This document shows positions 9,011-47,536 of a stretch of DNA of 64,000 nucleotides, piece by piece. The notes under the pieces were generated by a model. The model had not been told where the DNA came from. It did not search any database and saw only the letters and a program-made list of their open reading frames with translations. Positions within the stretch are counted from its first letter, which is position 1, and each line of letters begins with the position of its first letter. Made by a program: the position numbers and the translations under genes. The stretch lies in contig OY970070.1 in assembly GCA_963705355.1 (NCBI GenBank), positions 91,056-155,055 of the forward strand, read 5' to 3'. Source of the stretch: an uncultured Thermoplasmata archaeon (GTDB lineage: Archaea; Thermoplasmatota; Thermoplasmata; UBA10834).

Positions 9011-9021
9011 TTAGAACCACT

Positions 9022-9414: not shown

Positions 9415-10118
9415 CTCTTCTCCTCAGGCTCAGTTGGTTCCGGGGGCGTCGCAGCTTCGATGTCCTCCTCCTTCTCCTCCTTGAGCTCGGTTGTGATGAT
9501 CTTCTTCAGCTTGGGCTTGGCGACCTTGATCTCCTCCTTCTCCTCGCGCTCCTTCTTCACCGCTTCCTCTTGAGCCTTCGCCTGGAGTTCTTCCGGCTTC
9601 GGCCTCATCGGGTGGAGGTCATTTGCTATCGGGGATGTCACATAGTACTGGATCTGGTCTTCTTCCCCTCTCTTGACAAGGTAGCCCGGAATCGTGACCT
9701 TGCGAGGACCCACCGCTGCGTGTCCATGTACTATGAACTGTCTCGCCTGCTTGGGCGTGTACGCCAGCCCCTTCCTGAATACCATGGTCTGCAATCTGCG
9801 GGCAAGGATGTTCTCGGTCGTGAGAAGGAGGACGTCGTTCAGAGTGGCCCCCTCCAGAGGAAGCAGTGATAGCCGAGCACATCTCGCCAAGAGCTGATTG
9901 GTCTCTATCTTCGCCTGCGGATCGCCAGTTCTTGTTCTGGCCTGAAGTTCCCTGCTCTGGGCCCTCATTGATCTGACGAGCGATTGCGCGCGCCAAAGCT
10001 CCCTCTTGTTCTTCAATCCGTACTTCATGAGAATATCGTTCTCGGCCTTGATCCGCTCTCCTTCCCACGGGTGGGCTGGAGTTTCATACTTCCTTCGAGA
10101 AAACTTAGGGTCTCCCAT
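9411..10118 (-). CDS. rps4: 30S ribosomal protein S4 with Lys/Glu-rich C-terminal extension
   Basis: Starts [19 protein letters not shown] with an S4 domain, followed by an in-frame KE-rich tail of about 55 aa. Confidence 0.9.
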
Positions 10119-10126
10119 GGGTCACA

Positions 10127-19399: not shown

Positions 19400-22595
<3,196 letters not shown>

Positions 22596-31430: not shown

Positions 31431-31515
31431 GCGAGGGTAGCCAAGCTCGGTCAAAGGCGACAGACTCAAGATCTGTTCTCGCAGGAGTCCCCCGGTTCAA
31501 ATCCGGGCCCTCGCA
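31431..31515 (+). tRNA. tRNA-Leu (anticodon CAA)
   Basis: Folded by hand. The acceptor is GCGAGGG/CCCTCGC plus discriminator A, the D arm is GCC/GGC, the anticodon arm is ACAGA-CUCAAGA-UCUGU, the variable arm is long, and the T arm is CCCGG-UUCAAAU-CCGGG. No CCA is encoded. Confidence 0.92.
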
Positions 31516-31564
31516 CATTAGTTACCGGTAACTTATATATAGGCCAGACATATATCTGCGTCTG

Positions 31565-32161
31565 ATGAAAAAAGGCCCGGGAAGACCCAATTTAGGGCGA
31601 AAAAAGACCTTCAAAGACCGTCAGGTCGACCTCTATCTTCCGACCGTAGAAATGGTCAAGCAGTGGAAGGTCGAGGCGGAAAAACACGGGCTCTCACTCT
31701 CCAAGTTTGTCGTGGAAGTCGTCGACGACACCCTCAGGAAGAACCCGAGAGGCGTGACCCCGAGGGAGCAGCTTGAAGATGAATTGAACAAGACCTGGGC
31801 AGAGCTGACGACTCTCTCTATCGAAGTGGATCATCTTAGGGAGGCTCAAAAGAGGAACGAAGCGACTATAGCGGAGTATCGGGAGAAACTCGCGAGGCCT
31901 GCGGTCGTCTCTGAGGAATCCGCTGAATATGTCCCTATTCTAGCTGAGCTAATCCAAGAGGAGAAGGTCCTTCCGATTGAGAGGGCCAAGAAGATGTTCG
32001 GGATCGGAGACGCAGATGTCGATGCTCTTCGCGCGCTAGGCGCCGCCGTGGACGCACTGGCTAGCATGGGGCTCATCGAGAAAGGCATCTCGGATTGGAG
32101 GTGGATACGTGGAAATCGCAGAAAGAGGCAAGCCTCTCCGCGCACACGAGAACCTCGATAA
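31565..32161 (+). CDS. RHH (CopG/Arc-like) DNA-binding protein with coiled-coil; possible excisionase/regulator
   Basis: The beta-alpha-alpha pattern VDLYLPTVEMVKQWKVEAEKHGLSLSKFVVEVV is followed by a heptad-rich segment. It sits just upstream of and overlapping the integrase gene. Confidence 0.5.
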   Translation: MKKGPGRPNLGRKKTFKDRQVDLYLPTVEMVKQWKVEAEKHGLSLSKFVVEVVDDTLRKNPRGVTPREQLEDELNKTWAELTTLSIEVDHLREAQKRNEATIAEYREKLARPAVVSEESAEYVPILAELIQEEKVLPIERAKKMFGIGDADVDALRALGAAVDALASMGLIEKGISDWRWIRGNRRKRQASPRTREPR

Positions 32162-33083
32162 CCACTTCGCCTCCTTCATTGAGGACTGCCGCCTCCGAGG
32201 GATGACCCATTACTCGATTCTTTCGTACGCCTCCGTGCTGCGAAGTTTCAACCGTCATCTCGGCAGCCTTGGCATCCAAGATGCCGCTGACATCGACAAG
32301 AACGCCGTAAGGGACTATGTACGAGTCCTGCGCGAGGATCGCAAGCTGAGTATCTCTACGATCGAGAACCATCTGTCGAGCATCTCTGCGTTCTTCGACT
32401 ACCTGATGTACGAGGACGTGGTCGACTCAAACATAGCGTTGTCTGTTCGCAAGCGGTATGTGAGGAGATACAAGGCTGAGACACCCGGCGAGGGCCACAC
32501 GAGGAAGCTCATCACAGTGGAGCAATTGAAGGCGTTGGTCGAGTCCATCCTCCAGCCGCGCGACAAGGCCATGGTCGTCCTTCTTGCGAAGACAGGCATC
32601 AGGAGGAGCGAGCTCGTCACCATCGACATCAAGGACGTCGACTTCGCCAGCATGAAGATACTCCTCAAGCCTAAGGCGAAGAGGTCGAACCGGGTAGTCT
32701 ACATCGACGAGGAATGCGCGAGTCTCTTGCAGGATTGGCTCATCGTGAGGCAGAGATATGCCAGAAGTGACGTTCCCGCACTGTTCATAACCGAAGCTGG
32801 AGGTAGGGTGGACAGGAACGGGGTCTACAACATCGTGACGAGCCACGCTGCCCGTATGGGTCTGCACGATGCGTCCTCATGCAGGCTGGAGGATCATTTC
32901 TCACCGCACTGCCTCCGCCACTGGTTCACAACCCAGCTTCGGAGGAACGGGATGCCCAGAGAGATGGTCCAAGAGTTGAGAGGGGACATTCGCTCAGATG
33001 CGATTGACATCTATTATCACATCGATGAGGAGCAGCTCAGGAGCGAGTATCTCAGGTGCATCCCGAGACTTGGGACACGGTAG
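32109..33083 (+). CDS. tyrosine recombinase / integrase (XerC/D-like)
   Basis: SAM-like N-domain (FIEDCRLRGMTHYSILSYASVLRSF). Catalytic R (TGIRRSEL), HxxR (HCLRHW) and Y (IDIYYH). GTG start. Confidence 0.88.
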   Translation: MEIAERGKPLRAHENLDNHFASFIEDCRLRGMTHYSILSYASVLRSFNRHLGSLGIQDAADIDKNAVRDYVRVLREDRKLSISTIENHLSSISAFFDYLMYEDVVDSNIALSVRKRYVRRYKAETPGEGHTRKLITVEQLKALVESILQPRDKAMVVLLAKTGIRRSELVTIDIKDVDFASMKILLKPKAKRSNRVVYIDEECASLLQDWLIVRQRYARSDVPALFITEAGGRVDRNGVYNIVTSHAARMGLHDASSCRLEDHFSPHCLRHWFTTQLRRNGMPREMVQELRGDIRSDAIDIYYHIDEEQLRSEYLRCIPRLGTR

Positions 33084-33577: not shown

Positions 33578-34702
33578 ATGCCCAAGGAAAACGACTCAGA
33601 GTCCGAAGGCAAGCTGACTCGAGCGCCGAAGAGCAGACTTGGGAGACGTCCGTCTGAAGTATCGTTTCCTCGTGATACGCTGAAGAGGAGTCTCAAAGTT
33701 GCTGAATCTATTGAGAAGAACAACGCAGGCAAACCCTACAACAGGCTCGATCTCGCCCAATCTGTGTCTCTCTCGCCTAGCAGTTACTCATTTCGAAGTC
33801 TACTGAGGTCGTCGATTCGCCATGGTCTCACAGAAGGCAGCGAGAAGGCTGACAGGATACAGCTGACGGCGTTGGGCACATCTATCGTAAGCCCCGCTGA
33901 GGAAGGGGAAGTTGCGCGGGGGCTTCGAACGGCTTTACTGAAACCACCTCTGTTTAAGAAGATACTTGATTACTACGACAAGAAGAGGATCCCCCCAGAG
34001 GAATTGTTCAAGAACGCCTTGAAGAGGGAGTTTGGTGTCCCTGTCGAAGACGTTGATGTGTGTTTTCAGATTTTGATGCAGAACTTGAAAGATTATGGAC
34101 TGATTCAGAAGATCAAGGACAACGATTACCTGCAACTCGATAGGTTGAGTTCCGCGACTTCAGAGGGTGAAGAGGGAGTTCCTACCGAGGAATCCGAAGA
34201 AGAGAGAGCCGAAGTTCAAGTCAGAACAGAGGAAGAAGTGAGTCCCCCAGCGCCTACTCAGAAACCAAGAGATATTTTCGTAGCACATGGGAGAAACAAG
34301 AAACCGCTTGAGCAGCTCAAGACAATCCTTGCGCAATTCAAAGTACCTTTCAAGGTTGCGATAGATGAACCACACAAAGGTCGGGCAATCAGCGCGAAGG
34401 TCTCTGAATTGATGCGGGCATGCGGGTCCGGCATTTTCATTTTCACAGCAGACGAGGAAGCGACCGATGCTAATGGAAATCGACTGCTGAGGCCGAGCGA
34501 CAATGTGGTTTTCGAGCTTGGAGCAGGCACTGTTCTCTATGGTGACAAGATTGTTATACTCAGAGAGGAGGGTGTCTCCTTCGGCAGCGATTTCACGGAC
34601 TACGGCCACATCACTTTTGAAAAGGACAGACTGGACGCGAAGGCGCTAGACCTCATCAGGGAGCTTATTGGCTTGGGGTTCCTTCAAGTGACACCGACGT
34701 AG
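33578..34702 (+). CDS. protein with a C-terminal TIR-like nucleotide-binding domain (COG4271 / Cap12-Pycsar-effector type) and an unknown N-terminal domain
   Basis: The C-terminal 140 aa read IFVAHGRNKKPLEQLKTILAQF...PHKGRAISAKVSELMRACGSGIFIFTADE...DNVVFELGAG...IVILREEGVSFGSDFTDYGHITF. An acidic linker precedes them, and the N-terminal about 190 aa look wHTH-like. Confidence 0.7.
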   Translation: MPKENDSESEGKLTRAPKSRLGRRPSEVSFPRDTLKRSLKVAESIEKNNAGKPYNRLDLAQSVSLSPSSYSFRSLLRSSIRHGLTEGSEKADRIQLTALGTSIVSPAEEGEVARGLRTALLKPPLFKKILDYYDKKRIPPEELFKNALKREFGVPVEDVDVCFQILMQNLKDYGLIQKIKDNDYLQLDRLSSATSEGEEGVPTEESEEERAEVQVRTEEEVSPPAPTQKPRDIFVAHGRNKKPLEQLKTILAQFKVPFKVAIDEPHKGRAISAKVSELMRACGSGIFIFTADEEATDANGNRLLRPSDNVVFELGAGTVLYGDKIVILREEGVSFGSDFTDYGHITFEKDRLDAKALDLIRELIGLGFLQVTPT

Positions 34703-34829: not shown

Positions 34830-35555
34830 GTGTTAAGGAAGAAGGACCGGGAGAGTCTTGCTCCAAAGGTTTTCCTTAGCTATTCCTCTGGAGATGCCAT
34901 GTTGGCGGGTCGTCTGAAGAGGTCCCTCGAGCAATACGGAGTGAGAGCCTTTCTTGCGCACGAAGACATTGTTCCAGGCGAGAAATGGACGAATGAAATC
35001 ATAAGCGAGCTCAAATCGTGCGACATATTTGTCCCGATTCTGACGGCTAAGTCAAAGGTTTCAGTATACGTCAATCAGGAAATTGGTTTCGTGCTTGCTG
35101 GCAAGGCGAGAATCATACCTCTCAAGATAGATGTTGACCCCTTTGGTTTCATGTCAGAGACCCAGGGAATGAAACCCATCAGAACTACAATCCGAACTCG
35201 AGACGGTGTTAGCCAAGAGATAGACTCGAACTCTTCTGCATGGCTGATTGTGGAGAAGATCATGCAGGATCCTCAGCTCAGAGATGCGCTGAAACGCAGT
35301 GTAATTGACGATATGCACAATAGCAGAAGCTTCAAAGAAACCCGCTCTAGGACGCGAGTGCTGGAGTGTTTCAGCGAATTTGGCCAGAGGGAAGTTCGAG
35401 AACTCGCTAGAGCAGCAGCCAGCAATAGGCAGATTTTCGAGGAGGAGTACAAAGGGAAGAAGTTCTTGCAGGTATTCTTCAAGAATCACCGCAGATACCT
35501 AACTGATGACTTGGCATTGAGTCTCACTATGAAGGGTTTCCTCGAGGGGGAGTGA
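34830..35555 (+). CDS. TIR domain protein with an unknown C-terminal helical domain
   Basis: The N-terminus reads KVFLSYSSGDAMLAGRLKRSLEQYGVRAFLAHEDIVPGEKWTNEIISELKSCDIFVPILT...VYVNQEIGF, a canonical TIR_2-type pattern that includes the conserved Glu. Confidence 0.8.
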   Translation: MLRKKDRESLAPKVFLSYSSGDAMLAGRLKRSLEQYGVRAFLAHEDIVPGEKWTNEIISELKSCDIFVPILTAKSKVSVYVNQEIGFVLAGKARIIPLKIDVDPFGFMSETQGMKPIRTTIRTRDGVSQEIDSNSSAWLIVEKIMQDPQLRDALKRSVIDDMHNSRSFKETRSRTRVLECFSEFGQREVRELARAAASNRQIFEEEYKGKKFLQVFFKNHRRYLTDDLALSLTMKGFLEGE

Positions 35556-35769: not shown

Positions 35770-36798
35770 CTAGGCTCCTATTAGACCGTTTCTTTCCAGC
35801 GGTACCTTGTATCGGCTTTTGCCAAGAATCTCCTTGGCATAGGCCTCGTATTCACTGCCTCTCTTCAGCTTTCTTGTCAGATTGACTTCTTGCTGAAACA
35901 CCCAAGCATTGTGTAATGCGCGGAGTCCGAAGCTTCTTCGTAGTCCTTTGAGCCCCTCTCTCCGACATGCCGGACACCTGCAGTTGTCAAGCAACTCCCT
36001 TTCGTGTCTACCAAGCTTCCTTTTGATGGCAGAGCGTTCGTTGGACGTTATGTACCGATCTCCTATCCCTGGGAGTTGAATTGCCCCATAAGCCGCCTTT
36101 GTTCTCCATGCTGAGCTATCAATCGAATCAATACCAATCAAGAACATGAGATGCATTGTAATCGTGCTACCGACGCCAAACGTGTGAAGTCTAGCTTCCG
36201 GCAAACGCTGACGCACATAAGCCAGAATAGAAATCGCCTGAGTAATACCCATGGCACCCTTGAGCTTGAACAATGAAGGAACTAGGCTGCCAATTCCGAC
36301 TAGGTCGAATCTGCCACGGGTTTGAAGTCTCGAAATATACCAGCTAACTGACTCAATCGAATGTCCGTGAATTACTGGAACCATACTGGGGTTGTTGGTG
36401 GTCCTTAGCCTGAGCATTGCAGAAAGGTTCCGTAAACTCACATTCTGTCTGGAACGTTCTTGATATCTGCGAATCCCTGGTCGCAAGGGGTGGTCCAGCG
36501 CAACGCAGTACTCAGGATGACTTGCTTCGTAGAGATCCAGCACTTCCTCGAGGCCGAATCTTGGCTTGCGGTCTCGGAGAATGAGGTATCCACCAGAGTC
36601 CATCATTATTGAGCCTGAGAAACGTAGTGATTTGTGAATGCCATTTGCGGTGACTCGGTCAGTCCATGCCGGCGATTGAAGAATCTCTTGGGCATTGACC
36701 ATCAGGTTCTCAATCCTAAAATGCTCCCATGGCCGCGGACTACCGTCTATGCTGTGTGTGAGCCAGAAGAGAGGACTACGATCTGTCACCAAGTGCAA
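35770..36798 (-). CDS. tRNA-guanine transglycosylase superfamily protein (DpdA / Cap10 / ArcTGT-core-like), no PUA domain
   Basis: MMDSGGYL (catalytic DSGG), VALDHP, and the zinc site CRCPACRRE...LHNAW. It is 342 aa. The start may be the internal Met (MVNAQ), which would remove the 23-nt overlap with the upstream gene. Confidence 0.75.
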   Translation of the reverse strand: MHLVTDRSPLFWLTHSIDGSPRPWEHFRIENLMVNAQEILQSPAWTDRVTANGIHKSLRFSGSIMMDSGGYLILRDRKPRFGLEEVLDLYEASHPEYCVALDHPLRPGIRRYQERSRQNVSLRNLSAMLRLRTTNNPSMVPVIHGHSIESVSWYISRLQTRGRFDLVGIGSLVPSLFKLKGAMGITQAISILAYVRQRLPEARLHTFGVGSTITMHLMFLIGIDSIDSSAWRTKAAYGAIQLPGIGDRYITSNERSAIKRKLGRHERELLDNCRCPACRREGLKGLRRSFGLRALHNAWVFQQEVNLTRKLKRGSEYEAYAKEILGKSRYKVPLERNGLIGA

Positions 36799-37534
36799 CC
36801 TCCAGCGAAGATCTCAAGTGACATTGAGCCACAGGATGAGCAGGCCCATACATGTCCCAAGCAAAGGCGCCCCTGGATGTGACAAGAGATCGAATCTGTG
36901 CTCTATTCGGAACGAATCTGATTGGGACTCCAGAGACATCTGACGCAATCTCTAGAATCCTCCTATGAGTATGATCCCCCTTGAAGGCGAGAGAAGATGA
37001 GCAGTATCGAACGCACGCAATTAGGGTCGCAAAACGCCTTAGGTAATTCCTCTCAAGAAACCTGCCTACTGCCTTCCCGATGATTTCTAGACACTGCCGG
37101 ACAGTATCTGGGTCATAGTCTATTGAATTCCTCTCGCACCACCATTGGAAAAGGCCCGGACAGTCATAGTTCCACTGCGTGTCATCATAGAATTCCTGGG
37201 GTACCAAGCCAAAAGGCTCTGACACTGTGGCCAGGTGGATTTTCCCTTTGCTTCCATTGATTTGATTCAGAGTCTCAAGTAGTATTCTATAGGATCTTGA
37301 CTCCAGGTAGGGTTTTGTCGCCGTACACGGGAACAAAAGCAACACCTCTCTCCTTGGCATAACGTATTTGGATTCGATGAAATCCAGCCAATCCCTTATT
37401 GTTGAATTGTTATTCAGGCCGTCTAATACATCTTCGGGACTACGCAAGACCAGCGCAGTTTCTCTTCTGCGTTCGCTCGCAGAATCAGAGAATGTCAATT
37501 TCGATTTCTCCTTTGTAGAACAAAGATTTCTCAC
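36776..37534 (-). CDS. stand-alone DUF5591 (ArcS C1-domain-like) protein
   Basis: It contains LLLFPCTATKPYLESRSY. This is the ArcS signature PC-x3-KPY-x2-S-x2-H with the final His replaced by Tyr. Confidence 0.65.
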   Translation of the reverse strand: MRNLCSTKEKSKLTFSDSASERRRETALVLRSPEDVLDGLNNNSTIRDWLDFIESKYVMPRREVLLLFPCTATKPYLESRSYRILLETLNQINGSKGKIHLATVSEPFGLVPQEFYDDTQWNYDCPGLFQWWCERNSIDYDPDTVRQCLEIIGKAVGRFLERNYLRRFATLIACVRYCSSSLAFKGDHTHRRILEIASDVSGVPIRFVPNRAQIRSLVTSRGAFAWDMYGPAHPVAQCHLRSSLEVALGDRS

Positions 37535-37549
37535 CTCATACTAGGACAA

Positions 37550-40500
37550 TCATGGAATCAGGGCCACGCCCCCCTTAAGGAATCTCTTCTTTATCAGCCC
37601 TCTGAATACGCTGTCAACCTGGTCAGGGGACAGTGCAAGTTTTTTCTCCAGCTCTGAGTGCAAGTCTGAGAGTGGCAACCATCTGTTGCTGTCTTCTTTC
37701 AGGTGACCAAGTACTATTCCGAGAACGGAGGCCTCATCCTTGGTCAAGACTGGTGCAACAAGCGAATACATCAGTCTACGCGACCTCTGCATTGACGGGT
37801 CGTATTTCGATATCGGAGACCGCAATTCAAGCGGTTTGGTTCTTGAAAGGACCTTATCCAGACTCTCAAGTTCTTTCTCCAGAGCATCGCCAGATGCTAG
37901 AGTTTGTCTTTTTCGAGTTAGTGATACGAGGCGCCGAATGCTGGCTACAAATTCATCGATTTCAGATCGATAGTCAGTCCAAATCTCATTGACTCTCCCA
38001 GAAATAGCTTTCAGGTCCTGCTCGAGGACCGGGAGCTCTTTTTCGAAGATCCGAAGCACTTCCAGGATCTCTTTCGGGTCTTCCGACACTATCTTCGTTT
38101 TCAGCCCATCGTACTCTTCCTGGCGAGCGTCCAGACGTTCTCGCAGAGATAAGGTACCACTTTTCCACGGCTCGACGTCGAGTATTTCCTCCGCCCATTT
38201 GACTGACTCGCCCGCCTGGGCAAGCGCCGCAGAAAGGGAATTCTCGAAGCCATTTATGGTACTCAAATGGACAACGCATGAATGATAACCATCGAGGCCA
38301 GTCAGAATCTTGCCAGTTACGTTTTCGCAATACCTTTTCACATCCTGCAATCCGATTTTTCTTCGTTTTTCCAGCTGAATTCCTGCATATACGTCGAGGC
38401 TCTTGAGTCTCTTCAGGACCTCTGAAGTTAGAAGTGGATAGGGGGGATTGCCAATCGCATCGGCTTTTTCTCGAATTCGCTTGACCGAGTCATCGAGCCT
38501 TCGAAGATTCTCCTCGGCCAGGGTCAGTACCTTAAGATAGTTCACCAGCTTCGATTGCACATCTTCATTGATTTCGACGATCCTTTTTGTCTTGAGATTG
38601 AATCCAAAGGATTCATCATCGCTCTTGTTGAAGAGGAAGCATGATAATTCGCTCTCTTTGAGCCCTTTCTCGAGCTTCCGTAGATTCTGCAAGTCACTGT
38701 ATCCATGGTGAATGGACACTGCGCGGTCCTTCAACCCCGAAATCTCAACGAACTCATCAACATTCTCTGGCTCAACCTCAATCTTGAACCATCGTCTAAG
38801 GTTCGAGCACAGATTCGTGAGTCTCTCCTCGAAATCGCTCACACTTTTCTCAATGCTGAGGATGTTGTCCTCAGCAATCTTTACGGCTCCCCTAACATGC
38901 GGCAGAATTTCATCAAGCATATGCCTTGAGAGGCTGAGTGCCAAAGATGCTTTTTGACGGGTTAGAAGGTCGTCCGTTGTCGAGTCTGGGCTCCTGACAG
39001 GAGCCGATAGAGAGATCGCAATATCAAGTGCCTCCTTCGGCATAATCAGCCTTGATTCGCGCTCCTTGCGCACGAAAACATGACAATAGCCCCCGAGGCG
39101 CTTTGAATCGATTTGCCTTCTGAGCTCTTCCAAGGAAGTCTCCGCTTCTCTAGCGAGTTCGGTCTTGTCCCTGAGCGCAAAGAGTGTGTTTTTCTCATGC
39201 ACTACGCCTTCGTATTCAAGGAGATTCAGGTACACATTGCGAAGCAGTTTCCGAGAACGAGAAGCGAGGATGAAATGCTCCTCCAGCTGATTCTCCGGCA
39301 TTCCTTTCGTACTGCCAAGTATCTCGATGATCCTTTTTTCGATCGGATGCTGTAAAACATAAAGCGCCCCACTCTTGGGTCTGTATGCGAGGAATCCTGC
39401 TTCGACAAGATCTTCCGTCATGCTCTTGAACTTCTCCAGTCCTGAAATGTCTGGTATCAATCCCAGCCTCGAACTGTAGAACACAAACTTCAGCAATTCA
39501 TCCCGATTCCTTGCTAGTGCGGTGTCGGGGGTAGCATCCGACCCTCTAAGGTTGAGATAGAATTTCAGTGAATCAGCTAGTTCTCTTGGTGGGAATTGTG
39601 TCCTTAAGTCGTCAATCACCTTTCCTCCCATGGCTTGTCTTTTGAGCCAAGTCTCAACCTTCTGAGGAATGGTTAGTTCCTTGTTGACGAGATTCTCAAT
39701 CGCACTATTGTACAATTGCGATTCGATGCACTCCTTGTAGGACCTGCAAAGAACAGAGTCAATAATCACCCGCTTTGCGATAGCTGGATGAATCCGGATA
39801 TAGAGCGTTGAGTCCGAGCCCGCCTCTCCAAGTTCTTTTGCTTTTCTACAACTGGCAGCCTCTTTGCTCATCTCCCCAGAGTATAAGACAATCGCCAGAT
39901 GTAGGATTGGAGATGATCCCTTAGCTAGTTCATAGAGTCTGTCGACGTGGCCGGCCTCAAGGTCTCCATTCGCCGAATAGAATAATGTGACAATTCGAGC
40001 TCCGCCAGAAAAACTCAACAATGTAAGGACAAAGTCCGGCCCCTTTCTTAGCACCGACACTTCATTGTCGTCAATCATTCCAATCAAATCCACAACTGCA
40101 TTTGGCATATTCTCGTTGTAGAGATCAGAAAGATTTCTGTTGACTTCCCTCCATAGCTTGGCCCTGGTCTCTCGATTGTGGATATACTCTAGACCGGTCG
40201 GTACTGGAGTTGGAAAAACTCGCTGAAGAAGCTGTTCACTTGCTAGCACTTCCGACGGTCCTTCGGAGCACCTTCTTTCAACTATCTTGGCAAATTCAAT
40301 GGCATCTTCGGGTGCAATTCCTTCAAAAATGGCCAATGCAGAATCAAGATCGGCTGGCACGCATACCCTTGACTTTAGAATGCGGTCTTCTCCATAATCG
40401 TACCATGTTAGTCTATCTTCAACCGCGGCAAGCGGCTCCTCGTAGTTACCCATCTTCAATATCGAACGGTCCTCCTCTTTTGCAACAAACTTGGACAGGG

Positions 40501-41794
40501 CCTGCACAAGGTCAGTGAAGTTCAGGCCTTCCTTCAGCGCCTTGACCTTCAATACTGCGTGTTGGATTCCTTCTTCGCGTCTCAGCCTTTCGTTGATGAG
40601 GCCAATTGAACTCTTGAAATCACCATCAGACAAATGGATGCATGTCCTAACGTTTTCTTGGCTTATCGGCCCGAGGCTCCCTAGTAGAAGTCTCAGGAGG
40701 ATCAATGGCCCCTTCTCAGAGCCAGAATGACCCACTATTCTGAAGAGTCTGTCAAGGGTCTCGGGCTCCAAGCACCTCGTCTGGCCACCGTATACGAATA
40801 CGCGTTCCGACTGAAGGAATTCTAGAAGGGCCGTATGGTCTGCAATTCGCATTTCCTCTTGGGAGACACGCAGAGACTGAAAGAAATGAGCAAACAAGCT
40901 GACCATGACACCAGGGTTGCTTTGGCCAACTCGCGCAAGTGAGCTGAAAATCCCGGCGCTCTCAACAGGAAGAAAGTCCAACTTGCCTTCATAGCTGTAG
41001 CGCATAAGTTCATCCAGGAATCTTGCTGCCTCTCCCTTGCTAATCTGGGTTATCTCGATTTGGCCAACTCTGCGACCCAGCCCTCCAAAGATCAGGCTCG
41101 TGTCTCCGTCTGCCTGTAGTCTGAAGAATGCATCTGGAGTGCATGAAAGCATGAAATGGACTCTGCCTTGGAATTCCCCAGATTCATGAAGCAACGACTC
41201 AGGGCTGAGACTCTTCTTCGATTCCGATGGGATTTGTGGTGGATTAAGGATCTCTTTGAGGCCCGATATCACCTCACTAAGTCTCACTCTTCCAAGCAGT
41301 TCCTCGAACTCATCAATGAAGAAAATAAGGCGTGAGTCCCCCTGACATACGGCCTTGAGGCAATCACGGACGAACTGGAAAGAGTCAGAGTATCCATTTA
41401 CGGAAGGAAAAGGGAGCTCAGGGCTTGTTGACTTGGTAGCCGAGAACAGTGCCACCAGGAACCGTAAGGAGGATAAGGAAGTGTTGGAGATCGCTTCTTT
41501 TGCTTGGGGACTGTCATACGTGTTCGCCAGAGTCGAAGATGAGACGAAAAAGGCCTTGTGATTGTATCTCTTGCACCATGGGGCAATGTGCCTACGGTAT
41601 GCGTCTGTCTTTCCTTCTCCCCATTCTCCAAGCAAAACCCTCATTGAAGGGGCTCTCATCTTAGTGCACGACTCGAGCCAGTTCTCTATTTTCTTACCTA
41701 CAATCTCGCGAGAAGGTATTCTCGTGGTTTCGAATCCTTCGAAGGTCACACCAGCCTCGTTAGGCAATCGTTTCGGCGGTCTCATCGTATTCAT
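37550..41794 (-). CDS. 1414-aa P-loop NTPase (BrxC/PglY-, DUF2791- or KAP-like N-terminal ATPase) with a long helical/wHTH-like C-terminal region
   Basis: Walker A is LLGEWGEGKTDA (about 41606-41629) and Walker B is LIFFIDEFEELLG. The remaining about 1100 aa are helical with no recognisable catalytic motif. The ATG overlaps the HerA-like stop (ATGA at 41791-41794). Confidence 0.6.
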   Translation of the reverse strand: MNTMRPPKRLPNEAGVTFEGFETTRIPSREIVGKKIENWLESCTKMRAPSMRVLLGEWGEGKTDAYRRHIAPWCKRYNHKAFFVSSSTLANTYDSPQAKEAISNTSLSSLRFLVALFSATKSTSPELPFPSVNGYSDSFQFVRDCLKAVCQGDSRLIFFIDEFEELLGRVRLSEVISGLKEILNPPQIPSESKKSLSPESLLHESGEFQGRVHFMLSCTPDAFFRLQADGDTSLIFGGLGRRVGQIEITQISKGEAARFLDELMRYSYEGKLDFLPVESAGIFSSLARVGQSNPGVMVSLFAHFFQSLRVSQEEMRIADHTALLEFLQSERVFVYGGQTRCLEPETLDRLFRIVGHSGSEKGPLILLRLLLGSLGPISQENVRTCIHLSDGDFKSSIGLINERLRREEGIQHAVLKVKALKEGLNFTDLVQALSKFVAKEEDRSILKMGNYEEPLAAVEDRLTWYDYGEDRILKSRVCVPADLDSALAIFEGIAPEDAIEFAKIVERRCSEGPSEVLASEQLLQRVFPTPVPTGLEYIHNRETRAKLWREVNRNLSDLYNENMPNAVVDLIGMIDDNEVSVLRKGPDFVLTLLSFSGGARIVTLFYSANGDLEAGHVDRLYELAKGSSPILHLAIVLYSGEMSKEAASCRKAKELGEAGSDSTLYIRIHPAIAKRVIIDSVLCRSYKECIESQLYNSAIENLVNKELTIPQKVETWLKRQAMGGKVIDDLRTQFPPRELADSLKFYLNLRGSDATPDTALARNRDELLKFVFYSSRLGLIPDISGLEKFKSMTEDLVEAGFLAYRPKSGALYVLQHPIEKRIIEILGSTKGMPENQLEEHFILASRSRKLLRNVYLNLLEYEGVVHEKNTLFALRDKTELAREAETSLEELRRQIDSKRLGGYCHVFVRKERESRLIMPKEALDIAISLSAPVRSPDSTTDDLLTRQKASLALSLSRHMLDEILPHVRGAVKIAEDNILSIEKSVSDFEERLTNLCSNLRRWFKIEVEPENVDEFVEISGLKDRAVSIHHGYSDLQNLRKLEKGLKESELSCFLFNKSDDESFGFNLKTKRIVEINEDVQSKLVNYLKVLTLAEENLRRLDDSVKRIREKADAIGNPPYPLLTSEVLKRLKSLDVYAGIQLEKRRKIGLQDVKRYCENVTGKILTGLDGYHSCVVHLSTINGFENSLSAALAQAGESVKWAEEILDVEPWKSGTLSLRERLDARQEEYDGLKTKIVSEDPKEILEVLRIFEKELPVLEQDLKAISGRVNEIWTDYRSEIDEFVASIRRLVSLTRKRQTLASGDALEKELESLDKVLSRTKPLELRSPISKYDPSMQRSRRLMYSLVAPVLTKDEASVLGIVLGHLKEDSNRWLPLSDLHSELEKKLALSPDQVDSVFRGLIKKRFLKGGVALIP

Positions 41795-43479
41795 GTCCGG
41801 AGGACTCCCACAGTAGAGAGGCCATCAACAACACGAGTCTCTCCAGCTCTGTGCTCAACAAGTCGTTTGTCAGTGATCTTCGCAAGAATCGGGAACGGTA
41901 CAGGGTTCATCTGGCCCGCAAAGATCAACTCACCTCGATCGAGCGTCGTTAGCCTGCTGAGCAGCGAAGGAGGAAGGCCTCCCGTCACGCTTCTCACAAA
42001 ACTCACGTCTTCGTGAGATATCTTGTGCAGGAAAAACGTGTTGCACATTGAAACTACAATTTGGTCAACAAAACGAGGGCTCTGGGATATCACGCACAAT
42101 GATAGACCAAACTTCCGTCCTTGAGTGGATATGTCGGACAGTTTGCGCTGAGCCAGACTATATGATATCGGATAGTTGCTGTTCGGAGCGAAATTGTGTG
42201 CCTCCTCGAGCACGAAAATGAGGTATCGAGCGTCCCCTCTGACTTTGAAATCTGTGAACCTATTTAGAAGTAAAGTCGCGAGATACGTCACGACCAGTTG
42301 TTTGATCCGAAGGTCTACACCCGGTGCCCCTTCGGCCGAAAAATCGATGATCGAAAGACCATGATTGCTTGTCATATCGTCGACGAAATCTTGATGAGGA
42401 TCGGAAATGGGCGACTGTGCTGAGAGGAGTCGATGTCTATTCTCCACAACGCCAACAAAGTTGTCCAGAGCTCTTGCGGCACCTGATGCCGAAGCAGGAT
42501 GCACTACCTGCTGAGGAAGCTGCAGAATTGTTGTCCGCAAAGTTGCAAGAAGAGTTCGGTCCTGGAGCACGGCCTGCATGCTGTCGTAGCCTCTGAGCTG
42601 CATCTGATCGAACCCTTCTTCTATCGCTCGCACTTGGAGATCCGCCCCTTCGAGAGTCCCCTTGTGAAACAGAACCACAGTCTCGGCAATCTCCCTAGGC
42701 GACAAGCGATCGAGGTTTATTCCTATGGGACAAACAACGTTTTTAAGCCTGTTTGCCCGCAGAGTAGGGTTGTATGTGAGAGCCTCTGGAAAAACAAACC
42801 TTTTCACCCAGGCATACTCACCGAACTTTCTACCATCTGAAGCGTAATCAGAGTAAGGCACGTAATCACCGTGTGCGTCTACTACGACCATGGGATAGGC
42901 AAATGAAGATCCGTCGCGACCTGAAGGTATTTTCGAGAGTTTCTCCAGTAAGACCCCCATATCATATGACTTGCCACTACCAGTTGTTCCGAAAACTGCC
43001 ATGTGCATTGGAGCGAATTCGACATCCATGGGAACCGGTGCATCAGGGTAGCCTGAAAGAGAGCCGAACCACGCGATGCCGCTATCTCCTCTCTTCTTGC
43101 CGAAGATAGCCTCAGCGTCTCGGGAGATGTCAAGCCTATAGACATTCTCGCCAGGAGCAGGAGGCGTTCGAATAACGCCACGAGGGATAAGCGTCAGGAG
43201 CTCCAACTTGGCAATTTCATATTGGCGAGCCACTTCTTCTGGGATTGGCACATTTTTCCTGCGAGCCTCACTCCAGGCATCACCGGCCGTGTAGAATGCA
43301 TTGTATGGAATCACCTGGCTGACTCTCGCAAGAATCCTTTGTGATCCTCTATTGAGATCCACAATGAGCATCAGTCCTTCATGGATCTGCCCTCGCTCCG
43401 ATTTCTCCAGTAGTTGACAGAACGCCTCCTGCGTCGTAGCCTCGCTCAGGGTCACCGCTATTGGCTCGTGGTCTTTCAT
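41791..43479 (-). CDS. HerA-like (DUF87, FtsK/HerA superfamily) ATPase
   Basis: N-terminal HAS-barrel-like segment (GLMLIVDLNRGSQRILARVSQV), Walker A VFGTTGSGKS, and Walker B LIFVLEEAHNFAP. Confidence 0.8.
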   Translation of the reverse strand: MKDHEPIAVTLSEATTQEAFCQLLEKSERGQIHEGLMLIVDLNRGSQRILARVSQVIPYNAFYTAGDAWSEARRKNVPIPEEVARQYEIAKLELLTLIPRGVIRTPPAPGENVYRLDISRDAEAIFGKKRGDSGIAWFGSLSGYPDAPVPMDVEFAPMHMAVFGTTGSGKSYDMGVLLEKLSKIPSGRDGSSFAYPMVVVDAHGDYVPYSDYASDGRKFGEYAWVKRFVFPEALTYNPTLRANRLKNVVCPIGINLDRLSPREIAETVVLFHKGTLEGADLQVRAIEEGFDQMQLRGYDSMQAVLQDRTLLATLRTTILQLPQQVVHPASASGAARALDNFVGVVENRHRLLSAQSPISDPHQDFVDDMTSNHGLSIIDFSAEGAPGVDLRIKQLVVTYLATLLLNRFTDFKVRGDARYLIFVLEEAHNFAPNSNYPISYSLAQRKLSDISTQGRKFGLSLCVISQSPRFVDQIVVSMCNTFFLHKISHEDVSFVRSVTGGLPPSLLSRLTTLDRGELIFAGQMNPVPFPILAKITDKRLVEHRAGETRVVDGLSTVGVLRT

Positions 43480-43483
43480 ATCA

Positions 43484-44599
43484 TCACCTCAGCTGTAAAG
43501 AGATTATCTGCCCAAATCTGTCCGTCACCTTTCCCCTGCTCATGATGTCGTCATAGAGGACTTCAGCGCATCCCTGACGAATCTTGCACTTCTCGTCAGC
43601 CAGTCTCACGGGCAGAGGAATGTCCTGCCCCGGATACGTCCAATCAGATGCGTTTCTTACTGCGTTTCTCGCGAGCTTGACCAATTCTTTCTGGTCATCC
43701 ATCACATCGGACGACTCGATGAGATCGAGTCTTAGTACTTTTGCAGACGCATCTTTTTGAAAGAATACGTATCCTACCTTTAGACCTCTATCTTCATAGA
43801 CCCTGTAAGCTCCGCCTTGTCTGACAACGAGCGGTCGAGTGAATAGCGGTCCAGAAGCACCTTGTTCTCTCAACTTTGTGAACAAGTATAGGAATAGATG
43901 CTGGTCGCTTGGGAAACTGTCACGCCAAGCTGGTTCTATGACGCTCTCTTCGACCAAATAGTCCCTGATGAAGCGATCTCTGGACTTCTTGACGCAACCC
44001 ACTACCTGGCTTGTTTCAAGGTTGGTTCTCAGCGCCTCAGTTCTATATTCAATAAATGCATTCTCTTGATACGAGGGCGGGTCCACAATCGGGCCGTCAA
44101 TGAAAACGATAGACTTCTTTCTTCTGGAACCCCAGTTCATTAGAGCCTTGTTCTCTCCCACCATCATTCTTATTGCACATTCTAGGTTGATATTGAAGGT
44201 CTCGCTAGTTTCCTGTATCTCCTCAATGTGCGCATCAAAGACATCAACCACAGGAATCGAGGAAACGCCGCCGTCAAAGACTATTCTGGCAACGCTCATC
44301 GGGACGTACCAGAGACCACCCACTCCACCTATCGGAAAGAAGCTCCCGTCTATCCCCGCTGCGACGCTCATCAAGGAAGCACCCGTAAGCTCAACCTCAT
44401 CAAGGAGGATCGATTTGTCCTTCATCGTGTCTATGATTCTACTGCAGATGTCTTTCAATCGCCGGTGTTCTAGCTGGACCTTCTTACCCTTTCCAACAGC
44501 GTCATTGACAAGCGAAGACAGCGTCTCCGCTTCAGTCTTGTTGAATTGTATTTGGCGAAGAGCCTCCTGGAGTTCGTTCTCATTCATCGGACAAGCCAT
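43484..44599 (-). CDS. NurA-like nuclease
   Basis: The NurA motif series is present: VAAGIDGSF, IVFIDGPIVDPP, VVGCVKKSRDRF, SDQHLF and YPGQDIPLPVRLADEKCKI. It lies 4 nt upstream of the HerA-like gene. Confidence 0.7.
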   Translation of the reverse strand: MACPMNENELQEALRQIQFNKTEAETLSSLVNDAVGKGKKVQLEHRRLKDICSRIIDTMKDKSILLDEVELTGASLMSVAAGIDGSFFPIGGVGGLWYVPMSVARIVFDGGVSSIPVVDVFDAHIEEIQETSETFNINLECAIRMMVGENKALMNWGSRRKKSIVFIDGPIVDPPSYQENAFIEYRTEALRTNLETSQVVGCVKKSRDRFIRDYLVEESVIEPAWRDSFPSDQHLFLYLFTKLREQGASGPLFTRPLVVRQGGAYRVYEDRGLKVGYVFFQKDASAKVLRLDLIESSDVMDDQKELVKLARNAVRNASDWTYPGQDIPLPVRLADEKCKIRQGCAEVLYDDIMSRGKVTDRFGQIISLQLR

Positions 44600-44747
44600 C
44601 TCCTCCTCGAACGACGGATATTCCGTGCTCTAATGCTAGGCGAGCTTCTGAGTGCGCCTCTTTGATGGTCTCTTGTGCCTAAATGCCTTTTGGTTTGGCC
44701 AGATTGATCGGCATTGGAACTGGGATGGAGTCAGTATCTCCGCGATA

Positions 44748-45482
44748 TCATATGGAATCAGGTGATACCACCCGATTGGGGCCACCATTCTTGGAATGGT
44801 ACTCCGTGGGATCACAGATACCGGCACTCAGGAATGCCTCATGCCTTCGAACGCATGCTCCGCAAGTCCCGCAATGTAACCCTCCGTGTTTTGCTGAATT
44901 CTCGTAGCAGCTCCAAGACGCACGGACCATTGCCTCTCCGACCGACTGCGTCATGAGCCACTTGATAGCTTGGCCTTTTGTGATACTGATCAATGGTGCG
45001 ATGAACTTTATGCGAGAATTGTCATCATTGCTCTCAATGCACTCTCTTATGACATCATTCAATGACGAGACGAATTCTGGGGATGAATCAGCCACGATCT
45101 CACTGTCATCTTTGGTGAAACCCATGACGATTAGGCTTGAGCATGTGTGAAAGGCTACTGAAGCGTACGACACAGCAACGGCCCCAAGAACGAGATTCCT
45201 TCCATAGGGAAACGCACAGGGATTCAGCTCCTTCTGTCTCGCGTACCAGGGCATGGTTATAACGTTTTCGCATAGCTTATCGGCGCCAACCATCCTCGAA
45301 ATCTCCATCACAGCTCGTCGCTCGTCATCATAGGCACTCTGACCTCTGTTGACGAACAACGGCTCTACTCGCTTAATGCCGAGATCGTTCATCGCTCTGA
45401 TCGTTGCTATTGCGGAATCCAATCCTCCGGACAAAAGAGGTACAAGCAACCGCTTGGCATGTTCACTGTCATTGCTGCTCAA
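44748..45482 (-). CDS. QueC-family PP-loop ATPase (7-cyano-7-deazaguanine synthase-like; Cap9/QatC-like)
   Basis: PP-loop LLSGGLDSAIA. The C-terminal zinc cluster SCYENSAKHGGLHCGTCGACVRRHEAF is typical of QueC. Confidence 0.8.
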   Translation of the reverse strand: MSSNDSEHAKRLLVPLLSGGLDSAIATIRAMNDLGIKRVEPLFVNRGQSAYDDERRAVMEISRMVGADKLCENVITMPWYARQKELNPCAFPYGRNLVLGAVAVSYASVAFHTCSSLIVMGFTKDDSEIVADSSPEFVSSLNDVIRECIESNDDNSRIKFIAPLISITKGQAIKWLMTQSVGEAMVRASWSCYENSAKHGGLHCGTCGACVRRHEAFLSAGICDPTEYHSKNGGPNRVVSPDSI

Positions 45483-45949
45483 TGATGTCGCCCCCGTACG
45501 AATGCGACTGCCAACGAACGTGGCCGGTATCAGTCTCTGCCTATAAGTCGGTCCCGACTGGATTCGCTCTCATGACAGGACTGCACTCCAGTAAGATCAT
45601 AAATGCTCGTCTGATTGAGATATAGTCCGAACCAAAACGAGAAACCATTTCGAGCGAAAGGATCAGTCTAAACAGCATATGCACTCTCTGCGGCTCCTCC
45701 CCAATCCACACATGGAGAGATTCAGGAAGACCTTGATCTACAATCTAGGTCAATCACACTTTCTCGAGACCGTCTGATTAATGGTCCAACTGGAGAGCGA
45801 CGGGCGCTTCTGGAACAAATGGAGTAGGATACGCATGGCAGAGTGCATTCAATGGGATGCAAACCTGCTTTCGGTTTGTACTCTCCTTGAGTCGTAACGA
45901 CGAATTGCTCATGTTCAAACTGGCATCTCAGCCGCGTATGCACGGGCGT

Positions 45950-46291
45950 GTATACGCAACTACACATCGTATACTCCGTAGACACGTACAATGTAGACGC
46001 GTTTTCACAGCGTATACACTGAGGATGCTGGAGGTAGACACATTCTCTTCTGTCAAGACTTGAAGAACTAGTCCGCAGCTTAGGCTTCTACCCCGTACAG
46101 TTTACGGCTAGTTTACGGCACCGCGTCATGAGATCCGAGTTATGTGATTTTGGTTCGAGCGGTTCCAGGCAAAGGAAATCAGGGACCCATAGCACGCATC
46201 CGTAAACAGGCGTATACGCAGGTTTACACGGAGATACTGATAGTCTACAATACCGGTCAAGATTCATCGTGTCTACATGAGAGCGTCTACA
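45950..46291. repeat. iteron-like repeat cluster in an ORF-poor 1.1-kb region
   Basis: GTAGAC(A/G)C occurs three times forward (45979, 45994, 46035) and GTCTAC three times inverted (46243, 46271, 46285). There is a tandem AGTTTACGGC pair (46099-46108, 46110-46119) plus an inverted copy at 46200-46207. GTATAC cores lie at 45950, 45969, 46012 and 46212, the last within the perfect palindrome GCGTATACGC at 46210-46219. Confidence 0.75.
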
Positions 46292-46978: not shown

Positions 46979-47536
46979 AAGAATGCGCTTTTCCCATTAG
47001 CAGATCGTCATGTAGTTACACCGCTTGCATTTCCAGGGAGCAGGATTCGGAGAGAAGTCCTCCTTTTTGTTGATCTGAAGCATCTCACAGCAGGGAGCAG
47101 CCTGTACTTGCCTGTGAATGTGGACGGGGGGCTCCTTTTCCTGGGAGATCCCCACGTGGCACAGGGAGACGGCGAGGTGTTCTCAAGCGCGATAGAAGCG
47201 CCTCTCTCGGCAACGGTAAGATTGTCGGTCAGAGAAGATTTAGACCATCTGGATCCTCTGGCCTATGTCGTCAGGAAACCGAGAGTGCACGACGCCTACA
47301 GCAAGGGCTACATGGGATTCGTGGGAGTGGCAAAGACGATCGATGAGGCCACGGATATCGCCTGCATGAAGGCTCTGGGCTATTTTTGCAGCAAGCCCGA
47401 CATGACGCCTCAGAAGACGGCGATTCTACTCGGCGTCGCCCTAGACCTGACGATAAACGAGATTCCAGACAAGCCAAACAAGGTCGTCAGCGGGATCGTC
47501 CCCCTATCCATATTCAAAGGACTCAGATTACCGTAG
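46979..47536 (+). pseudogene. 5'-truncated acetamidase/formamidase-family gene (C-terminal about 40% only)
   Basis: VDLKHLTAGSSLYLPVNVDGGLLFLGDPHVAQGDGEV matches the family core (D.K.L..GS.LYLPV.V.GA..S.GD.HA.QGDGE). The frame is closed by a TAG at 46976-46978 inside the tRNA-like fragment, and the N-terminal half is absent. Confidence 0.7.

Follow-up and report, generated by a model that had tools for sequence, protein, structure and literature searches.

A recurrent gene cassette joining a DpdA-like transglycosylase to a NurA-HerA pair and an ORC/Cdc6-like giant protein: a candidate for deazaguanine-based self/non-self discrimination in archaea

Introduction

Enzymes of the tRNA-guanine transglycosylase (TGT) family known as DpdA are able to place 7-deazaguanines in DNA. 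When tested in E. coli, viral DpdA2 alone inserted the 2'-deoxy form of 7-cyano-7-deazaguanine (preQ0; dPreQ0 in DNA), and with a standalone ArcS2 protein the product was 2'-deoxyarchaeosine (dG+; PMC10516641). The enzyme pair of Vibrio phage nt-1 makes both dPreQ0 and dG+ in DNA, and the DNA of the virus STSV2 contains 2'-deoxy-7-carboxy-7-deazaguanine (dCDG; PMC10516641). DpdC, the protein of the DUF328 family, converts DNA-embedded preQ0 to 7-amido-7-deazaguanine (ADG; PMC12839542). Two further groups of described systems, BRC and the proposed 'HerA/FtsK + Orc/Cdc6 capture systems', include DNA translocases. Archaeal defence beyond CRISPR and classical restriction-modification (R-M) is poorly charted. 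Here we describe a gene cassette that shares parts with each of these systems. It was found on the minus strand, at positions 35770-45482, of a 64-kb stretch of contig OY970070.1 from an uncultured Thermoplasmata archaeon (the whole stretch is hereafter the window), and it encodes a TGT-like enzyme, a DUF5591 protein, a giant protein, a HerA-like translocase and a NurA-like nuclease, accompanied in the window by a QueC-like protein.

The balance of the evidence tips, by a modest amount, towards a cassette of two modules that serves as an R-M-like immune system and travels on mobile islands. The cassette itself recurs intact in distantly related genomes, with its catalytic motifs preserved.

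Composition and recurrence of the cassette

The original prediction, made from the sequence of the window alone, described a tightly packed operon of six co-directional minus-strand genes, and its layout was confirmed (Table 1). The open reading frames (ORFs) are separated by 148 nt (QueC-like to NurA-like) and 4 nt (NurA-like to HerA-like), the HerA-like and giant genes share a 4-nt ATGA overlap, 15 nt lie between the giant and DUF5591 genes, and the DUF5591 and TGT-like genes overlap by 23 nt. Every motif quoted at that time was found in the translations (SGGLDS, HCGTCGACVRR, GIDGS, FIDGP, GCVKKS, YP..LADE, GTTGSGKS, LEEAH, GEWGEGKT, FFIDEFEE, PCTATKPYLES, DSGG and CRCPAC..H). The unit had been drawn too large, since its core comprises five genes (NurA-like, HerA-like, giant, DUF5591 and TGT-like) and the QueC-like gene accompanies only about 4 of 25 cassettes.

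The comparison, by phmmer and clustering, covered 47 loci from species-representative genomes and further contigs, designated here by L numbers. Twenty loci were complete, each with a close homologue of the giant and enough flanking sequence (the window, L001-L006, L010, L011, L013, L014, L016, L018, L019, L023, L048, L052-L054 and L058). In all 20, the genes for NurA, HerA and the giant followed one another in this order, and genes for a TGT and a small partner protein accompanied them. An arrangement repeated in 20 of 20 independent loci far exceeds what chance would produce, and the expectation that these genes would co-occur across distant genomes was upheld. A reverse test gave the same answer: when TGTs were chosen from contigs outside the match list of the giant, 4 of 4 lay in the same cassette. 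The TGT subfamily as a whole formed 314 clusters, all of proteins of about 340-370 amino acids (aa).

The archaeal carriers belonged to Thermoproteota, Bathyarchaeia, Nitrosopumilus, Archaeoglobales, Hydrothermarchaeota, Thermoplasmata, Methanodesulfokora, Methanomethylicia, Aenigmatarchaeota and Asgard archaea, and the bacterial carriers to Bacillota, Chloroflexota and Bacteroidota. The distribution was patchy, with about 25-47 loci among 185,579 species genomes. Flanking genes differed at every locus and had nothing in common between loci. Insertion contexts were unrelated, including sites between ribosomal-protein and metabolic genes; phage integrase was the commonest family in the flanks (six tyrosine-type and two rve among 133 flanking ORFs), and many loci had no integrase. 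In the closest relative of the window cassette (46% identity in the giant) an IS110 transposase occupied the QueC position. As had been anticipated, known defence genes were frequent in these variable, integrase-rich flanks. They included type III CRISPR RAMPs, type II R-M, Old/AriA, LmuB, DrmC/PLD and PIN genes, and individual loci also had transposase, GmrSD, NERD, STAND NTPase or McrBC-like genes. The viral collection IMG/VR held no relatives of the giant and only two TGT matches, both remote, and a viral origin of the cassette was rejected.

The five components have not evolved as one block. Among the giant, NurA and HerA, distances were tightly correlated (Mantel r = 0.91-0.94), and those of the TGT were loosely correlated with them (0.43-0.55); the cassette is therefore read from its sequences as a co-adapted trio of translocase, nuclease and putative sensor together with a more exchangeable modification pair. 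The giant was the fastest-evolving component (20-33% identity, against 42-53% for HerA), as would be expected of a specificity or sensor component.

Individual loci carried features of their own. At L018 (Crocinitomicaceae), an AriA/NsnB-like ABC-type ATPase of 404 aa and a 163-aa gene were inserted between giant and TGT (8908-10576), as a pair of defence genes within the cassette. At L058, a McrBC-like pair (AAA_5 plus DUF2357/PDDEXK_7; 2017-4735) lay directly upstream of the cassette; the giant of this locus was present on 24 contigs, of which L058 is one from a biogas-fermenter metagenome, and is also recorded as 'Methanothermobacter sp. MT-2'. One flanking ORF of the L001-L046 set matched PADLOC DpdB at 4e-22; none of 10 candidates tested proved to be this ORF.

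The putative modification pair and its predicted substrate

The TGT-like protein matched Pfam TGT at 7e-16 and PADLOC DpdA at 4.7e-14. It aligned to the catalytic domain of Pyrococcus horikoshii ArcTGT (1iq8, 1e-12) and more weakly to Salmonella DpdA (7ui4, 4e-3), and its equivalog scores were low (NCBIfam DpdA, 52.9 bits against a cut-off of 200; TgtA TIGR00432, 66 bits against 350). On these scores it is classed as a homologue of DpdA, not an equivalog. The catalytic and zinc-binding residues (D67/S68/G69, D102, D227 and C273-C275-C278-H296) were invariant or nearly so among 17 cassette TGTs, which also share a family-specific motif, D-S-x2-W-R-x-K-A-A. The absence of a PUA domain noted in the original prediction was confirmed and extends to the C1 and C2 domains.

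The DUF5591 protein matched its Pfam family at 1e-13, scored 51 bits against the ArcS equivalog cut-off of 440, carried the ArcS C1 motif PC-x3-KPY-x2-S and matched AF0587 (PDB 2q07) across that motif. Short-form DUF5591 proteins (~180 aa), present at some loci, have the complete motif including its final His, and DUF5591 partners reached 5e-18 in Pfam. In a phage collection, the best matches to both the TGT-like and the DUF5591 proteins were the adjacent DpdA and ArcS2 genes of the Sulfolobus viruses STSV1/2, the DUF5591 match being weak. A second type of cassette, termed bacterial-type (L010, L011, L023 and L058), has the TGT upstream of NurA and a DUF6884 protein as partner. According to the Pfam curators, DUF6884 is distantly related to YaaA/DUF328, has a conserved CxxxK motif and forms a cleft for DNA binding and base flipping (PMC11701544). 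The partner of the TGT was always one or the other, ArcS2-like DUF5591 or DUF6884. In all variants, then, the companion of the TGT is a small enzyme of a type for which activity on preQ0 embedded in nucleic acid is known or predicted.

The QueC-like gene is an accessory whose product probably supplies preQ0 or a derivative of it. It matched Pfam QueC at 2.8e-26 and TIGR00364 at 73.5 bits (cut-off 150), and belongs to a small subfamily in which SGGLDS and C-x11-CxxCxxC are conserved. With the public gene call, which begins at Met31 and gives 214 aa, the SGGLDS PP-loop would be lost; homologues show the 244-aa ORF, with a TTG start at 45482, to be the right one. The similarity to QatC amounted to 44.8 bits against a cut-off of 280, over the C-terminal 70 residues only, and the PADLOC QatC match was weak. 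The order QueC-like, NurA, HerA was seen in the window, L025 and L051, and a QueC fragment followed the cassette in L053. The subfamily is rare and was found essentially only beside these cassettes and beside a sister system that combines HerA with a TGT. In that sister system (L049:2880-10111 and L050, both Thermoplasmata), a QueC-like gene with 37% identity to that of the window stands next to an operon for a TGT (323 aa), a 409-aa protein, a 510-aa protein and HerA (519 aa), with a DDE transposase alongside and with no giant and no NurA; the 409-aa and 510-aa proteins had no family matches.

Other cassettes carry a different link to the same precursor. In L011, from Chloroflexota, an intact gene for a YhhQ/Vut_1 queuosine-precursor transporter (5291-5995) lies directly upstream of the TGT, and in L055 inverted fragments of such a transporter (5441-6216) adjoin it. 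The distant, TGT-less locus L026 has a YhhQ/Vut_1 transporter ~2 kb from the giant gene. Flanking radical-SAM genes were considered as QueE or RaSEA and rejected, being PA0069-type or activase-like. Taken together, the cassette-specific QueC-like genes, the preQ0 transporters beside the TGT and a partner of ArcS2-like or DpdC-like type strengthen the link to deazaguanines that had originally been proposed.

The giant protein, HerA and NurA

A profile search of 1.84 billion representative proteins showed the giant to belong to a sharply bounded family (252 matches at E<=1e-3, 170 clusters at E<=1e-30). Full-length homologues (~1400 aa) formed 111 clusters, all of them unannotated. Apart from a weak nSTAND5 match, no family in Pfam, PADLOC or NCBIfam matched it. 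Two AlphaFold models, of residues 1-690 (mean predicted local distance difference test score, pLDDT, 85) and 405-1090 (pLDDT 87), were compared with the PDB by Foldseek, and they provide folds for the first ~1090 residues. The internal domain limits were inferred from the secondary structure of the models. For residues 1-410 the top matches were ORC, Cdc6, SSO1545 and PAB2304, with E-values down to 9e-8, and both Walker A (GEWGEGKT, aa 56-63) and Walker B (FFIDEFEE, aa 158-165) were invariant in the family alignment; the N-terminal ~410 residues are thus modelled as an ORC/Cdc6-type AAA+ ATPase with lid and winged helix. Within residues ~411-690, the model matched the restriction endonuclease (REase) fold of MspJI (1e-4 and 1.4e-3) and, more weakly, the Cap4 nuclease domain, EndoMS, EcoO109I, EcoT38I and Mus81. 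Conservation in this region was limited to W548, R549, G610 and G640, and because the alignment shows no conserved acidic catalytic residues, the REase-fold domain is probably inactive. The second model gave SelB-like tandem winged-helix matches and a 60-residue helix. Sequence-profile searches of the PDB returned only coiled-coil and helical-bundle proteins, at positions 1050-1400, and these were counted as coiled-coil noise; judged from the sequence, a winged helix-turn-helix (wHTH) domain may be present at the C-terminus. We predict that the giant is a DNA-bound sensor or organizer.

The giant had earlier been compared in size with BrxC. Kinship with BrxC, DUF6079 or DUF499 was rejected, given that Pfam and PADLOC provided no match and an exhaustive hidden Markov model search returned only the giant's own family, and the comparison gives way to the ORC/Cdc6-like fold.

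Deep-branching homologues of the giant (L022-L047), from Desulfurococcales, Pyrodictiaceae and Ignicoccus pacificus (CP006868.1), have ~23% identity and lengths of 1390-1590 aa. Their genes precede, or diverge from, NurA (and in some cases HerA), and some are split into ORFs of ~600 and ~885 aa. These loci have no TGT and sit in conserved housekeeping synteny (ABC transporter, HMG-CoA reductase, MatE); they may represent an ancestral or domesticated cellular version. At L021, a TGT pair stands together with a deep-branching giant.

The HerA-like protein matched Pfam DUF87 at 4e-22 and PADLOC HerA at 6.8e-32, with Walker A GTTGSGKS and Walker B LEEAH, and scored 67-72 bits against housekeeping HerA equivalogs with cut-offs of 800-970. 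The NurA-like protein of the window matched Pfam NurA over its full length at 1.2e-3, below the Pfam cut-off, and had no match in a sequence-profile search of the PDB. Its assignment is based on family-level Pfam matches among the orthologues, 20 of 21 of which matched NurA (best 4e-14). D84, E149, D168, K204 and D232 were invariant.

Proposed mechanism and its alternatives

The proposed mechanism is as follows. The first module would write a mark: the TGT-like enzyme would swap guanine in self-DNA for preQ0, which would come from the archaeosine or queuosine pathway of the host and at some loci be topped up by the QueC-like enzyme or a YhhQ-type transporter. The partner would then convert the DNA-embedded nitrile, to dG+ or a related amidine where it is the ArcS2-like DUF5591 protein of archaeal cassettes, and to the 2'-deoxynucleoside of ADG (dADG) or a similar product where it is the DpdC-related DUF6884 protein of bacterial-type cassettes. 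In the second module, the giant would load on DNA by means of its winged helices and inactive REase-fold domain and check the status of that DNA. On unmarked DNA it would recruit or license the HerA translocase and the NurA nuclease, which would reel in and degrade the DNA, and the carrier would in this way be protected against viruses or plasmids. In its specific form, that carriers hold 2'-deoxyarchaeosine or another preQ0-derived base in the chromosome as a self-mark, that the giant reads this mark and that NurA-HerA destroys DNA lacking it, the proposal is tentative and could well prove wrong.

Several observations weigh against the mechanism. The relatives from which a DNA substrate for the TGT is argued are only 26-33% identical to it, and the TGT-like protein scored somewhat better against ArcTGT than against bacterial DpdA. 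In long-form DUF5591 proteins, Tyr replaces the last His of the ArcS motif. Homology between DUF6884 and DUF5591 was not supported by hhalign (probability 0.2%), though the CxxxK motifs of the two were aligned. Dpd needs DpdB for insertion, and archaeal ArcS needs RaSEA to finish archaeosine (G+); the cassette has neither a DpdB-like ATPase nor a RaSEA partner, and its final product is uncertain for this reason. TGT-less loci of giant and NurA, with or without HerA, occur among housekeeping genes in Desulfurococcales, Pyrodictiaceae and Ignicoccus, and because the trio exists without a TGT in these deep-branching loci, giant, HerA and NurA may not read a mark. Finally, the mechanism would require an ORC-like protein to sense that a sparse mark is missing.

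These same TGT-less loci favour the alternative that deserves most attention, in which the trio would be a modification-independent 'capture' defence and the TGT module would serve separately, by shielding host DNA from nucleases or as a second layer. NurA-HerA acts naturally on DNA ends, and the TGT co-evolves only loosely with the trio. Capture systems of the DndFGH type, based on HerA, have been argued to be functional when decoupled from modification modules (PMC10853773). We nevertheless judge this alternative unlikely: TGT and partner were present in all 20 complete loci of the mobile clade and each of the four independently sampled TGTs lay in the cassette, which is stricter than a loose association, and L021 joins the TGT pair to a giant of the deep-branching kind.

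A role in the maintenance or transfer of mobile elements was also weighed, whereby the ORC-like giant and HerA would replicate, partition or transfer the element, NurA would process its ends and the TGT pair would write an anti-restriction mark. Plasmids and viruses of archaea commonly encode ATPases of the ORC/Cdc6-like and HerA/FtsK kinds, and integrases or transposases lie beside many cassettes. In addition, arCOG00280, which is HerA-like, ranks with the top families in the 'dark matter' islands of archaea (PMC4158269), and viral deazaguanine modification serves as anti-restriction (PMC6884629). The cassette, however, is a compact five-gene unit that occurs in unrelated contexts with no other conserved element genes and at many loci with no integrase; IMG/VR does not contain it, its neighbours are typically other defence systems, and neither an origin nor an initiator-specific partner for the giant was detectable. 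We regard this role as improbable.

Somewhat less probable again is a type IV-like system in which the TGT and its DUF5591 or DUF6884 partner would be readers of deazaguanine-modified viral DNA, directing giant, HerA and NurA to it. Targets would be available, as archaeal and bacterial viruses carry dPreQ0, dG+, dADG or dCDG (PMC10516641, PMC6884629). Domains of ArcS and DpdC type bind nucleic-acid-embedded preQ0, type IV genes (GmrSD, McrBC-like) are found as neighbours, and an MspJI-like fold is present in the giant. The catalytic and zinc apparatus of the TGT is invariant, however, and a protein that only read the mark could lose it. The links to QueC-like proteins and preQ0 transporters point instead to consumption of a free base, and the removal of 7-deazaguanines by a TGT is chemically disfavoured, the TGT reaction being irreversible.

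Modification of a protein in place of DNA had been included in the original prediction. In type IV CBASS (cyclic-oligonucleotide-based antiphage signalling systems), Cap9 (QueC-like) and Cap10 (TGT-like) carry out protein deazaguanylation, with QatC a related case, and a deazaguanine on the giant or on HerA might similarly prime or regulate it; the QueC-like protein of the window does weakly match QatC models. The conjugation in CBASS is performed by the QueC-like enzyme, which is absent here from ~21 of 25 cassettes, so that protein deazaguanylation is unlikely as the core mechanism. No CD-NTase was present, the match to QatC was confined to the 70 residues described above, the nearest viral relatives of the TGT are DNA-modifying DpdAs, and its obligatory partner is of a nucleic-acid enzyme type. 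DNA modification is favoured over protein modification, which we consider very improbable.

The least probable reading, against which the original prediction had already argued and which can be set aside almost entirely, is that of chance neighbours with housekeeping roles (split ArcTGT/ArcS for tRNA archaeosine, HerA-NurA for double-strand-break repair): the TGT does align best to ArcTGT, DUF5591 is the ArcS core and HerA-NurA is a known archaeal repair pair, but all scores fall far below equivalog cut-offs (66 of 350 bits for TgtA, 51 of 440 for ArcS), PUA, C1 and C2 domains and genes for Mre11 and Rad50 are missing, and the cassette occurs in bacteria, which lack archaeosine, with a patchy distribution, variable flanks, integrases and defence neighbours.

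The island in the window

The cassette of the window lies in an island of ~16 kb that extends from a tRNA-Leu(CAA) gene to near a formamidase remnant, with ordinary metabolism and transport genes beyond (Table 1). The integrase and two TIR proteins that had been recognized beside the operon were borne out by family searches. The low GC content attributed to the island held at the left edge, where it falls from 0.55-0.58 to 0.48-0.50, and failed at the right; because housekeeping DNA on that side is also GC-poor (0.50-0.54), GC does not mark the right edge, which was placed by gene content only. The tRNA-Leu(CAA) gene is the probable integration site. No attachment-site repeat was found by a direct-repeat search or by searches with the tRNA-Leu 3'-end (<=3 mismatches, no second copy). 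The formamidase/acetamidase gene was possibly cut by insertion of the island or by decay.

Table 1. Coordinates of the cassette genes, the regions of the giant protein and other island features in the window
Feature	Position	Strand	Description
TGT-like (DpdA-like) base-exchange enzyme	35770-36798	-	342 aa; catalytic TIM barrel and zinc subdomain only
DUF5591 standalone protein	36776-37534	-	252 aa; ArcS C1 catalytic core, ArcS2-like
Giant protein	37550-41794	-	1414 aa; predicted ORC/Cdc6-type AAA+ ATPase and further domains
Giant, aa 1-410	40565-41794	-	predicted AAA+ base, lid, winged helix
Giant, aa ~411-690	39725-40564	-	predicted beta-rich domain, then REase-fold (alpha-beta-beta-beta-alpha-beta) domain
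Giant, aa ~691-1414	37553-39724	-	predicted tandem winged-helix/helical region, long coiled coil (~aa 940-1340), winged-helix-like C-terminal end
HerA-like hexameric DNA translocase ATPase	41791-43479	-	562 aa
NurA-like nuclease	43484-44599	-	371 aa
QueC-like PP-loop ATPase	44748-45482	-	244 aa
tRNA-Leu(CAA)	31431-31516	+	ARAGORN and Rfam; left island edge
Tyrosine integrase	32109-33083	+	Pfam Phage_integrase 1e-25
TIR-domain protein 1	33578-34702	+	CAP12/Pycsar TIR 3.6e-14; PADLOC PDC-S35 2e-16
TIR-domain protein 2	34830-35555	+	TIR_2 2.4e-19; ThsB-like
Formamidase/acetamidase C-terminal remnant	47108-47536	+	Pfam FmdA_AmdA 3.9e-16, profile positions 226-372 of 373

The two TIR genes are neighbouring defence-type genes outside the cassette and are not conserved beside other cassettes; no partner sensor gene for them was recognized. 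Upstream of the QueC-like gene lie 1.6 kb poor in ORFs, in which positions 45948-46280 hold a dense series of GTATAC, GTAGAC and GTTTAC motifs with small palindromes. Six of the 30 matches to CGTWKAC in the window fall within 270 bp in this cluster, which may be a protein-binding array. Inspection by eye alone showed TATA-like sequences (TTATAG and TATATC) ahead of the QueC-like gene, and a promoter and terminator scan gave matches at chance level with models that are bacterial-type and inapplicable to archaea. Elsewhere in the window, an archaeal 23S rRNA gene (19409-22593) is split by a group I intron (20423-20625; Rfam, 61 bits) and marks the host as an archaeon.

Significance

If the proposed mechanism is correct, the cassette would be the first deazaguanine-based R-M system in archaea; an ArcS-type enzyme would for the first time be known to act on DNA in cells and not only in viruses, and NurA-HerA would gain its first role in immunity. 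It would also be widespread (314 TGT clusters and 170 giant clusters in public data), with a hypermodified base as self-mark, and would carry cellular 7-deazaguanine DNA modification beyond Dpd and viruses to Thermoproteota, Bathyarchaeia, ammonia-oxidizing archaea, Asgard archaea and DPANN. The modified genomic DNA would affect sequencing and metagenomic analysis of the carriers. A system of five genes offers a setting for the question of how the modification status of DNA is read by an ORC-like ATPase, which arises for BREX, Dnd and Dpd as well, and its interchangeable partners, ArcS2-like or DpdC-like, provide a natural experiment on the deazaguanine derivative that is written. In archaea, the cassette is a candidate for self/non-self discrimination by a deazaguanine mark that is both sharply delimited and open to experiment.

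Comparison with known systems

No PADLOC model (2023) covers the system, as had been expected of the island: models for the NurA-like, giant and DUF5591 proteins are absent, and only generic HerA, DpdA and QueC models responded. Searches of full-text and supplementary literature, with most subscription journals outside their scope, returned no earlier description of the cassette. The claim that the system is unprecedented held in part. In the literature covered, the five-gene combination is undescribed; HerA together with a TGT is known from BRC, and Orc/Cdc6 together with HerA from the proposed 'capture systems'.

The likeness to Dpd lies in the pairing of a TGT-family enzyme with a small protein that, in the cassette, is predicted to act on the preQ0 nitrile, in the predicted dependence on the preQ0 pathway, in being island-borne, in the division into a modification part and an ATPase/nuclease restriction part and, in bacterial-type cassettes, in the DpdC-related DUF6884. 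The window cassette differs from Dpd in that Pfam and PADLOC detected no DpdB (a ParB-like ATPase), no true DpdC (DUF328) and none of DpdD-K. The predicted absence of DpdB and DpdC was thereby supported, the PADLOC Dpd matches being to DpdA and QueC only. In place of the Dpd restriction proteins the cassette has the ORC-like giant, HerA and NurA, and archaeal cassettes use an ArcS2-like enzyme. That enzyme recalls the viral DpdA and ArcS2 pairs (STSV1/2, Vibrio phage nt-1), in which the TGT-like and standalone DUF5591 genes are likewise adjacent; the cassette pair differs in its low identity to them (26-33%), in being cellular and joined to a nuclease/translocase module, and in its reversed gene order.

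Among other defence systems, type IV CBASS (Cap9/Cap10) and QatABCD also recruited QueC-like and/or TGT-like proteins. In the cassette the QueC-like gene is optional. The chemistry of CBASS and Qat is protein conjugation. The predicted absence of a CD-NTase was supported by Pfam and PADLOC for all island proteins, and PADLOC found no QatA, QatB, QatD or TatD in the cassette; QatC itself is a protein of ~400-450 aa. The canonical HerA-NurA pair shares with the cassette its adjacent genes and conserved ATPase and nuclease motifs. The cassette pair is highly divergent from it (67-72 against 800-970 bits for HerA, with NurA barely detectable), mobile and patchy in distribution, and no Mre11 or Rad50 was present in any cassette examined.

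BRC likewise brings HerA/FtsK together with a homologue of TGT, for which a role in placing a deazaguanine mark on self-DNA has been proposed (PMC12839542). It is defined by PglZ, DUF6079 (BrxC-like), a BrxB-like STAND NTPase and DUF4007, often with GNAT, none of which was detected in the cassette by Pfam or PADLOC, and it has neither NurA nor DUF5591 (PMC12839542). The capture systems (PMC10853773) resemble the second module in having an Orc/Cdc6 AAA+ ATPase, HerA/FtsK, a nuclease and a mobile setting. The ATPase of the capture systems also has an inactive REase domain between the AAA+ core and a C-terminal wHTH, to which the probably inactive REase-fold domain and possible C-terminal wHTH of the giant may correspond. 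Their nucleases are active members of REase families, whereas the cassette has NurA and no active REase was found in it; its giant is ~1400 aa with a long coiled coil, and the capture systems lack the TGT or DUF5591 module, neither NurA nor TGT being mentioned in the text or supplement (PMC10853773). Because the giant is ORC/Cdc6-like by its predicted fold, the system fits the theme of 'HerA/FtsK + Orc/Cdc6 capture systems' and is not without precedent. The cassette is an apparently undescribed system built from recognizable types of module, Dpd-like modification on one side and a HerA/Orc 'capture' module on the other.

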